Positions 21,334 through 22,527 of a DNA stretch of 64,000 bases are shown here, in pieces; the first letter of the stretch is position 1, and each line of letters opens with the position of its first letter. A program made the position numbers and the translations under genes. Source of the DNA: a virus (taxonomy: Duplodnaviria; Heunggongvirae; Uroviricota; Caudoviricetes); the IMG/VR virus record IMGVR_UViG_3300025299_000102, one strand, 5' to 3'. The notes below the pieces were generated by a model. That model had not been told where the DNA came from. It worked only from the letters and a program-made list of their open reading frames with translations, and ran no database searches.

Positions 21334-22527
21334 TTGAAGCACCCTTACCTTGAAGCAGCACAACGACTGAACTTATTCCATGTCGAGGAGCATTCGCCGG
21401 GCTTTGCCTGGTGGCATCCCAACGGACTTTGCCTCATTGAAGCCCTAAAGAGTCTCGTCCGCAACGCGCACGCAAAATATGGCTACGAGGAAGTAAAGAC
21501 CCCAAACATCACCGGCGTTGAACTCTTCGAGCAGTCGGGCCACCTGGCCAAGTTCCGCCAGAATATGTTTGTAGTTCCAGGGGGCGACGGAGAGCGTAGC
21601 TATGTAGTTCGCCCGATGAGCTGTCCAAACCACATCGCAGTATTCGACCACGCGCGCCGCAGCTATGCCGAGCTGCCGCTTAAGCTCTACGAATTTGGGG
21701 AAGTAGTGCGCAATGAACCTTCCGGTAGCCTGCAAGCGCTGTTCCGCATGCGAGGGTTTGTGCAAGATGACTCGCATGTATTCGCCATGGAAGGCCAGTC
21801 CATCGACGTAATTGCGGACTACATCGCCATGTCCCGGGAAATTTACCAGGCCCTGGGCTTCCCTGATGTTCGGTATCAGATTTCATTGCGGCCAGAGCAA
21901 CGCTTTGGCGACGATTTTTTGTGGGATAGGGCAGAAGAGGCTTTGCGCGAGGCATGCCGCCGAAATGGCCTGAGCTGGGATGAAGAGGAGGGCGGTGGTG
22001 CCTTCTACGGACCAAAGCTTGAGATGCACCTGACCGACAAACTTGGCCGCAGCTGGCAGATGGGAACCGTCCAGCTCGACTACGTTCTGCCGCGCAGGTT
22101 TAATCTCGAGTACCTAAGTCGCAATAACCAGGCCGAAGTTCCGGTCATCCTGCATCACGCTGTTCTTGGCTCCCTAGAGCGCTTCATTGGCGTCCTACTC
22201 GAACAGTATGGCGCCGACTTGCCGGCGCCGCTACGGCCGGTACAAGTGGCGCTCATCACTGTTCGGGAATCCGAGGACGTCTACGTCCGCGGCCTGGCTG
22301 CTGATTTGCGCCGGCAAGGTATCCGCGTAAAGACCTTCCTGGGTGACGCACGCTTGGGTGGTAAGGTGAAGTCGGCTGAGCTCGAAGTCCCTGCATTCAT
22401 TGCGGTGGTGGGTGGTAGAGAGGTGGCTGCGGACCAGGTCGCCATTCGCCATCCTGACTCAATGCCAAAAGTAGAGCGGGCCGCGTTTGTTGCGGAAGTT
22501 CTCGCCGGCTGTAATGCCTGGTCCTGA
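21334..22527 (+). CDS. thrS-like: threonyl-tRNA synthetase-like protein (class II catalytic core + anticodon-binding domain; lacks N-terminal TGS/editing domains)
   Basis: Collinear with E. coli ThrRS residues ~242-642: RPMSCPNHIAVF, EFGEVVRNEPSGSLQALFRMRGFVQDDSHVF, GAFYGPK, MGTVQLD, HHAVLGSLERFIGVLLEQY; TTG 21334 with GGAG RBS preferred (track start 21262 reads through terminator). Confidence 0.75.
   Translation: MKHPYLEAAQRLNLFHVEEHSPGFAWWHPNGLCLIEALKSLVRNAHAKYGYEEVKTPNITGVELFEQSGHLAKFRQNMFVVPGGDGERSYVVRPMSCPNHIAVFDHARRSYAELPLKLYEFGEVVRNEPSGSLQALFRMRGFVQDDSHVFAMEGQSIDVIADYIAMSREIYQALGFPDVRYQISLRPEQRFGDDFLWDRAEEALREACRRNGLSWDEEEGGGAFYGPKLEMHLTDKLGRSWQMGTVQLDYVLPRRFNLEYLSRNNQAEVPVILHHAVLGSLERFIGVLLEQYGADLPAPLRPVQVALITVRESEDVYVRGLAADLRRQGIRVKTFLGDARLGGKVKSAELEVPAFIAVVGGREVAADQVAIRHPDSMPKVERAAFVAEVLAGCNAWS

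Follow-up and report, generated by a model that had tools for sequence, protein, structure and literature searches.

A shortened threonyl-tRNA synthetase (ThrRS) gene lies on the plus strand of a 64,000-nucleotide stretch of DNA (the window) from the IMG/VR virus record IMGVR_UViG_3300025299_000102, which is classed in the Caudoviricetes. The gene product, which we call the ThrRS core, is encoded behind a sigma-70-like promoter, a short open reading frame (ORF) with a run of threonine codons, and an intrinsic terminator that probably acts as an attenuator of the synthetase gene (Table 1). The leader is situated between a divergent upstream gene and the ThrRS start. At the other end, a GC-rich hairpin falls between the ThrRS gene and a convergent minus-strand gene at 22572-23237, and probably ends the ThrRS transcription unit; it is missing from the terminator-scan list because its loop exceeds 8 nucleotides (nt).

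A ThrRS reduced to its catalytic and anticodon-binding domains

The ThrRS core matches the Pfam families tRNA-synt_2b (PF00587, 3e-43) and HGTP_anticodon (PF03129, 4.7e-11) and no other domain. Against the NCBIfam model TIGR00418 (thrS) it scores 391 bits with a cut-off of 383.65 and covers only profile positions 156-545 of 565, implying the absence of the N-terminal quarter of an ordinary ThrRS. The top PDB matches are all ThrRS (7.7e-103 for 6vu9), and ProRS, HisRS, GlyRS and SerRS score at least 60 orders of magnitude worse in both profile and PDB searches. Residues 244-610 of the E. coli enzyme (1qf6) align to residues 5-373 of the ThrRS core, and the 401-411-residue chains of 1EVK and 4HWO align with it end to end. 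These two structures are of the engineered E. coli ΔN-ThrRS, residues 242-642, which has been used in crystallography and enzyme assays; the N-terminal boundary of the ThrRS core is that of this construct. A tblastn search of the whole window with the N-terminal 245 residues (TGS and editing domains) of the Ralstonia and Burkholderia thailandensis ThrRS gave no significant match to either domain (best E 0.054). The initial annotation, made from the sequence alone, had described an N-terminally truncated ThrRS and had named the domains by which it could be recognized. Its description is borne out, as tRNA-synt_2b and HGTP_anticodon are present, TGS and tRNA_SAD are absent, and the matches are specific to ThrRS rather than to a different class II synthetase.

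Pairwise alignment with residues 242-642 of E. coli ThrRS gave 38% identity. The E. coli zinc ligands C334, H385 and H511 are retained as C97, H148 and H274. The residues for threonine, ATP and the acceptor end (H309, M332, R363, E365, R375, F379, Q381, D383, Y462, K465, Q479, T482, Q484, S517 and R520) are also identical, giving 18 of 18 checked positions when the zinc ligands are included. The threonine-binding residues, which match those of E. coli, are D146, Y225, K228 and Q247 in the ThrRS core. The motif 1 proline, R363, E365 and R375 of motif 2, and R520 of motif 3 are conserved, so the zinc-ligand and motif 2 and 3 residues that the initial annotation had singled out for checking proved intact. 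In an alignment of 36 family members the zinc, threonine, ATP and acceptor-end residues are invariant, among 82 invariant columns overall. The anticodon contacts E600 and R609 are kept, and the changes N575D, K577R and R583K are conservative. Conservation within the family is lowest in the anticodon-binding domain, and the C-terminus is divergent in half of the clade.

The clade of ThrRS proteins that carry the threonine leader has an invariant substitution beside each zinc ligand, N333S, A384S and R512H (S96, S147 and H275 here). Other clade-specific substitutions are W304F, K330R and F487Y (F65, R93 and Y250). These changes are not shared by full-length ThrRS or by other truncated phage ThrRS, and may tune discrimination between threonine and serine in an editing-free enzyme.

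The simplest prediction is that the ThrRS core is an active, non-proofreading ThrRS. Lacking the N-terminal editing domain, it is predicted to be unable to hydrolyse Ser-tRNA(Thr). The E. coli ΔN enzyme reportedly charges tRNA(Thr) normally and also makes Ser-tRNA(Thr). The Anabaena T2ΔN ThrRS has no editing activity (PMC4787780). Two roles had been put forward in the initial annotation, a supplement to host aminoacylation without editing and a tRNA(Thr)-binding regulator. The checked active-site residues, together with the retained E600 and R609, lend better support to an editing-free working ThrRS, while nothing in the analysis speaks specifically for a regulator.

The ORF list gave a single plus-strand frame from TTG 21262 to the TGA ending at 22527. 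We rejected this longer ORF, which would put the terminator hairpin (21293-21313) within coding sequence, in favor of the start at TTG 21334 with its GGAG ribosome-binding site, as first proposed in the annotation. The exact 397-residue product from TTG 21334 is a called protein (P0001) on a 571-kb JGI metagenome contig (3300003784, Ga0055534_1000001). The TTG 21334 start is taken to be right because homologues carry an ATG at the aligned position, which is the case in 10 tabulated loci plus L177 and L178. The homologue start codons have GGAG or GAG approximately 6-8 nt upstream, except for L177, which has none, and in L008 and L010 an in-frame stop codon separates the terminator from the ATG.

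A threonine-codon leader with a downstream terminator

The leader ORF contains eight Thr codons in a stretch of nine (ACT ACA ACC ACA ACT ACC ATC ACC ACT, 21213-21239). When the window was read in six frames, only two stretches had at least six Thr codons in nine, compared with a mean of 0.24 in composition-matched shuffles. The terminator begins 20 nt past the leader stop codon, and its 5' arm includes CCGCC at 21297-21301, the complement of the GGCGG in the 3' part of the leader ORF (region 2). The 181-nt leader region as a whole folds 3.2 standard deviations better than shuffled sequences. The three independent loci closest to the window (L004, L006 and L008) have kept the sequence (G/C)CTATACT, followed after 5 nt by ATG, which suggests that the transcript of the window and of these relatives begins without an untranslated leader, from the TATACT that lies 5 nt before the ATG. 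More distant loci have ordinary 5' untranslated regions.

We examined the alternative pairings with constrained folds. When the RNA is free of ribosomes, region 2 is paired with the Thr codons and the terminator is formed. If a ribosome is positioned within the Thr run, the GGCGG of region 2 (21250-21254) pairs with the CCGCC of the terminator arm, with a fold energy of -16.8 kcal/mol. A ribosome at the stop codon covers region 2, leaving no competitor, and the terminator can form. The gain from the antiterminator in the window is -9.5 kcal/mol compared with -3.0 ± 2.4 kcal/mol for shuffled upstream sequence, and 2 of 200 shuffles match it.

A leader, terminator and ThrRS core conserved across a clade

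The comparison covered 13 independent loci, namely the window and 12 others (L004, with the same sequence as L005; L006, with the same sequence as L007; L008-L015; L177 and L178), with 48-82% protein identity and 30-66% GC. The layout of Thr-run leader, terminator and ThrRS core is found in all 13. The 12 other leaders are 22-46 codons long and contain five to nine consecutive Thr codons, as in MFKQTTTTTTTTTSRKWRACFVG, MNFPQVINTTTTTTTTPQEVVG, MNKFVFNTTTTTTLLKAGLVGYCLE and MYFSFATTTTTTTTALRPVAERTRT. The terminator starts 12-30 nt after the leader stop codon at every locus, and approximately 20 nt after it in most.

Each leader ORF contains a region 2 complementary to the terminator arm of the same locus. 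The pairing partners co-vary: GGCGG with CCGCC, GGAGGUGG with CCCACCUC, GGCUGGG with CCCAGCC, GACCGGG with CCCGGUC, and GGGGUGG with CCCACCCC. In the constrained folds, a ribosome in the Thr run allows region 2 to pair with the terminator 5' arm at 13 of 13 loci (-17 to -47 kcal/mol), and moving it to the stop codon all but abolishes this pairing, with 0 to 3 nt paired. RNAalifold, applied to a MAFFT alignment of 10 leaders, recovered only the terminator, with compensatory changes at four of its eight pairs, since the divergence among the leaders prevents an alignment in register. The antiterminator was consequently tested in each sequence against its own shuffles. It was matched by at most 6 of 200 shuffles at 10 of the 13 loci, and by 8 and 13 of 200 at two more. 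The link between the synthetase gene and an upstream attenuator, already suspected in the initial annotation, is upheld by the conserved leader and terminator and by these predicted folds.

In a rough neighbor-joining tree the leader-bearing proteins form one clade, composed exclusively of proteins of 376-424 residues. Other truncated ThrRS occur on huge-phage contigs in IMG/VR (115-578 kb; L058-L090). These proteins have 386-435 residues and 36-42% identity, and they branch elsewhere in the tree, among full-length bacterial enzymes. These other genes lack a Thr leader except for a weaker Thr-rich upstream ORF at L073 and at L065, a relative of L073 on a small contig. Judging from these sequences, phage-borne ThrRS appear to have lost the editing domain repeatedly.

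The host-type thrS genes of Ralstonia and B. thailandensis have no Thr-run leader. An origin of the leader by borrowing from host thrS was considered and rejected, as these genes instead follow a tRNA-Val gene and a terminator. In two such loci (L175 and L176) the full-length thrS is preceded by tRNA-Val(GAC), a structured spacer and a strong terminator, which may be an unrelated regulatory leader. As the attenuator is conserved in the clade and absent from host-type thrS, we regard it as an old, clade-specific partner of the truncated gene.

Homologues of the gene occur on many metagenomic contigs, at 48-82% identity. A near-identity DNA search with positions 15-30 kb of the window against deposited plasmids and phages found nothing, and no relative of the ThrRS core closer than approximately 45% identity was found in deposited phages and plasmids. 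The only match in a single-protein pattern scan of genome contigs was to a distant, full-length ThrRS of a Gaiellaceae metagenome-assembled genome. The same type of scan gave no match on viral contigs, where an alignment-based scan did reach relatives. In a metagenome scan canonical ThrRS dominated, and among the matches listed there was one new relative, L096, at 45% identity.

Genomic setting

The contigs that carry relatives are large: 437 kb (in IMG/VR, classed as viral), 508, 571, 699 and 846 kb. The 437-kb contig encodes a 50%-identical relative with the same leader. The family cluster table places further members on contigs that measure 0.85 Mb and, at the upper end, 1.46-1.85 Mb; the latter may be elements larger than any described phage. 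Two assemblies labelled 'Burkholderia ubonensis' contain contigs of approximately 640.0 and 640.3 kb, at approximately 61% GC, with a syntenic locus of DUF2828, FKBP, ThrRS core and deacetylase genes (L006 and L007; GCA_001528095.1, LPBK01000018.1, 640,048 bp). These contigs may represent a giant phage-like replicon resident in cultured isolates.

The phage-like setting noted in the initial annotation holds up, as several window genes match PHROG families. In addition to the TROVE/DUF2828 gene and the other genes that Table 1 lists outside the ThrRS-core locus, phage-type genes include an rIIA-like gene (phrog_612, 2e-29) and an S49 protease that matches head-maturation proteases (phrog_53, 2e-41). 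Also of phage type are the genes for an NAD synthase, a 5'-nucleotidase, a 5'-3' exonuclease, an FKBP, a histone-deacetylase-like protein, a topoisomerase IA, an ATP-dependent DNA ligase, an HNH endonuclease and several proteins with matches only to PHROGs of unknown function, and about half of the window ORFs tested match no family. The RNA ligase, TROVE protein, MYG1-type exonuclease and PhoH-PIN protein form a cluster of genes for RNA repair and handling, which places the ThrRS core in a neighbourhood of RNA and tRNA maintenance. RNA ligase, TROVE and PhoH make up the RNA-repair set described for jumbo phages (PMC7824862).

Table 1. Positions of the features of the ThrRS-core locus and of other genes in the window
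Feature	Position	Strand	Remarks
Sigma-70-like promoter	21166-21195	+	TTGAAG, 18-nt spacer, TATACT; consensus scan; TATACT ends 5 nt before the leader ATG
Leader peptide ORF	21201-21272	+	encodes MFMLTTTTTTITTSVKWRSRIVG; read from the sequence
Region 2 core	21250-21254	+	GGCGG; within the 3' part of the leader ORF
Intrinsic terminator (putative attenuator)	21293-21321	+	hairpin GAACCCGCC-UUGU-GCGGGUUU, -11.4 kcal/mol, followed by a T-run
Shine-Dalgarno sequence	21324-21327	+	GGAG, 6 nt before TTG; equivalent site in homologues
ThrRS-core gene	21334-22527	+	397 residues; catalytic core and anticodon-binding domain, without TGS or editing domain
Class II catalytic domain	~21586-22209	+	Pfam match; part of the ThrRS-core gene
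Anticodon-binding domain	~22243-22479	+	Pfam match; part of the ThrRS-core gene
GC-rich hairpin	22533-22559		AAGGCCGC, 11-nt loop, GCGGCCTT; T-run on the minus strand
MYG1-type exonuclease	8223-9125		
T4-type RNA ligase 1	9879-11105		
TROVE/DUF2828 RNA-binding protein	18549-19925		phrog_850, 1e-113
PhoH-PIN	40338-41999		
TnpB/IS605-family gene	43269-44345	-	Cas12f-like TNB domain

Two further observations concern the surroundings. A TnpB-like gene is also located near the ThrRS core in L009. At 5855-5982 on the plus strand of the window there is a 128-nt tRNA-like gene that reaches 36.9 bits with the Rfam tRNA model (gathering score 29) and was missed by ARAGORN. It is flanked by a promoter-like TTGCCA-N17-TATAAT at ~5820-5848 and a terminator at ~6030-6055, and it has an encoded 3' CCA, a CUCUAAA loop with the amber anticodon CUA, a weak anticodon stem and approximately 50 inserted nt at the position of the variable arm. 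One possibility is an amber-suppressor tRNA whose variable arm is giant; another is a Y RNA of the YrlA type that partners the TROVE protein. Of 30 likely window genes, 24 end in TAA, four in TGA and two in TAG.

Proposed mechanism and alternative explanations

We consider it likely, from the sequence evidence assembled above, that positions 21166-22559 constitute a single-gene unit of promoter, Thr leader, attenuator and minimal editing-free ThrRS that would be induced when Thr-tRNA(Thr) is scarce. With plentiful Thr-tRNA(Thr), the ribosome would pass the Thr tract, reach the leader stop codon and cover region 2; the terminator 20 nt downstream would then form and transcription would stop before the ThrRS gene. 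When Thr-tRNA(Thr) is scarce, as might result from threonine limitation, an insufficient or inhibited host ThrRS, or heavy translational demand in infection, the ribosome would stall in the Thr tract. The free GGCGG could then pair with CCGCC, and RNA polymerase would read into the ThrRS gene. The ThrRS core would activate threonine at its zinc site and charge tRNA(Thr) through the retained anticodon-binding domain, and the element would in this way supplement ThrRS activity as needed. Control in cis by the leader would replace protein autoregulation, for which the E. coli enzyme reportedly needs its N-terminal domain. Ser-tRNA(Thr) might be handled by trans-editing by the host ThrRS, as with Anabaena T1/T2, by the signature residues, or by tolerance.

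Several points weigh against this interpretation. The Rfam Thr_leader model (RF00506) scores the locus at 20.2 bits compared with a gathering score of 55, which puts the leader outside the enterobacterial thrL family; no leader, T-box or riboswitch family in Rfam reaches threshold at 20900-21500. The antiterminator of the window consists of only five G-C pairs plus an inner helix, and that of L011 is no better than shuffles at a mid-run stall (46 of 200). Attenuation requires coupling of transcription and translation and a polymerase that obeys intrinsic terminators, and the switch would not operate as proposed in an element that relies on an RNA polymerase of its own or on a phage nucleus. 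The 64-kb window contains no capsid, terminase or tail gene, so the term giant phage-like replicon is supported without this being proof of a phage. No tRNA(Thr) gene and no trans-editing factor were found in it either. Lastly, the substitutions beside all three zinc ligands leave room for an altered substrate specificity.

The same control would be expected of a spare, inhibitor-resistant ThrRS of the ObaO/BorO kind, induced when obafluorin, borrelidin or another natural product like them blocks the housekeeping ThrRS. An attenuator of this type responds to any drop in Thr-tRNA(Thr), including one caused by inhibition of the host enzyme. Second copies of aminoacyl-tRNA synthetases are well known as resistance genes, in Streptomyces avermitilis the auxiliary trpS2 lies behind an attenuator, and the clade-specific changes flank the zinc ligands. 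In ObaO, G463S and L489M confer resistance to obafluorin and borrelidin (PMC11252418), but both positions are wild type in the ThrRS core (G226 and L252), and ObaO is full length at 637 residues. Furthermore, the ThrRS core differs from ObaO in having no linkage to a biosynthetic cluster within 64 kb; its neighbours are phage-type nucleic-acid and RNA-repair genes, and the module occurs on giant phage-like contigs across a very wide GC range. We consider a resistance enzyme unlikely. Slightly less probable again is a role outside translation, either as a regulator that binds tRNA(Thr) or mRNA or as a threonine-activating ligase for another acceptor. Truncated synthetase paralogues with new roles exist, and such a role could fit the signature substitutions beside the zinc site, the comparatively low conservation of the anticodon-binding domain and the divergent C-terminus in half of the clade. 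Yet the residues checked for making Thr-AMP and for the transfer step to A76 (H309) are all invariant and E600 and R609 are kept, none of which a pure binder needs; Thr-codon control also suits a product that yields Thr-tRNA(Thr). The E. coli ThrRS reportedly requires its N-terminal domain, the part missing here, for translational repression.

The loss of approximately 240 N-terminal residues and the TTG start might also be taken as signs of decay, with the gene a remnant of a captured host thrS and the Thr-rich ORF and hairpin accidental. This is very improbable given that the frame is intact clade-wide with its 82 invariant columns, that leader and terminator persist at all 13 loci despite complete sequence turnover, that the Thr run is unique in the window, and that the host-type thrS of Ralstonia and Burkholderia lacks a leader of this kind. 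The attenuated, editing-free ThrRS remains the explanation that we favor. On a broader reading, which we put forward as a tentative possibility, the Thr leader and ThrRS core would be an ancestral signature of an undescribed giant phage-like lineage that senses the charging of host tRNA(Thr) through ribosome stalling and answers with a zinc-site-remodelled, editing-free ThrRS. If so, this would be, to our knowledge, the first case of a virus that manages the host translation apparatus with a ribosome-mediated attenuator sensing an amino acid, and the enzyme may have acquired a means of rejecting serine that does not depend on editing.

Huge phages carry tRNA synthetases, and how and when these are used is largely guesswork. 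The present locus offers a readable control logic, in which the gene would be silent when Thr-tRNA(Thr) is abundant and on when it is low; this logic implies that the element experiences or causes a ThrRS shortage in its host. The locus also provides a natural, widely conserved bacterial-type ThrRS without a proofreading domain, raising the question of how the substitution of serine for threonine is prevented or tolerated. With a syntenic copy in cultured Burkholderia assemblies and with its small parts, both switch and enzyme are accessible to standard assays.

Relation to known systems

The novelty of the locus lies in combining known kinds of parts, attenuation of the thrL/pheST type and a minimal ThrRS. 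Our literature searches found no prior description of a Thr-codon attenuator on thrS, of a truncated phage ThrRS, or of a phage genome with a leader-peptide attenuator that senses an amino acid. Huge phages of more than 200 kb have been shown to carry aminoacyl-tRNA synthetase genes (Al-Shayeb et al. 2020, PMC7162821); threonyl-tRNA synthetase is not mentioned in that paper, which was not searched specifically for truncation or attenuation. The truncated huge-phage ThrRS that we found outside the leader-bearing clade differ from the ThrRS core in their low identity, their position on other branches and their lack of a Thr leader, apart from the weaker example at L073.

The enterobacterial thrL leader is a close regulatory parallel. 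Both have a short ORF of Thr codons, alternative 1:2, 2:3 and 3:4 hairpins and a terminator, and both would sense charged tRNA(Thr). Unlike thrL, the leader described here would control a synthetase rather than a biosynthetic operon, and it resides on a phage-like genome. Its Thr run is almost pure, in contrast to the mixture of Thr and Ile in thrL, the two have no detectable relationship in sequence, and in the closest relatives of the window the -10 box abuts the leader ATG.

Synthetase genes under a leader rich in their own amino acid are known from pheST in gamma-proteobacteria, with its pheM leader, and from trpS2 and leuS in Streptomyces, and classical attenuators upstream of these genes have been described (PMC1262725). 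The present locus resembles them in this respect but concerns threonine and a thrS-type gene, here a truncated paralogue that a mobile or viral genome carries.

Other bacteria adjust ThrRS by different means. In B. subtilis, thrS and thrZ are controlled by uncharged tRNA binding to a T-box, and in E. coli ThrRS binds its own thrS mRNA. These systems raise ThrRS when the charging of tRNA(Thr) or the activity of the enzyme is low, which is the outcome predicted here as well, but neither a T-box nor a thrS operator element was detected by the Rfam search at the present locus.

As an enzyme, the ThrRS core is most similar in organization to ThrRS forms that have no editing domain in cis: the engineered ΔN-ThrRS (1EVK, 1EVL and 4HWO), yeast mitochondrial MST1 (3UGQ; PMC4267643) and the crenarchaeal ThrRS-cat (3A31). 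It is distinguished from them as a natural sequence of bacterial type that belongs to a separate clade with its own signature residues beside the zinc ligands.

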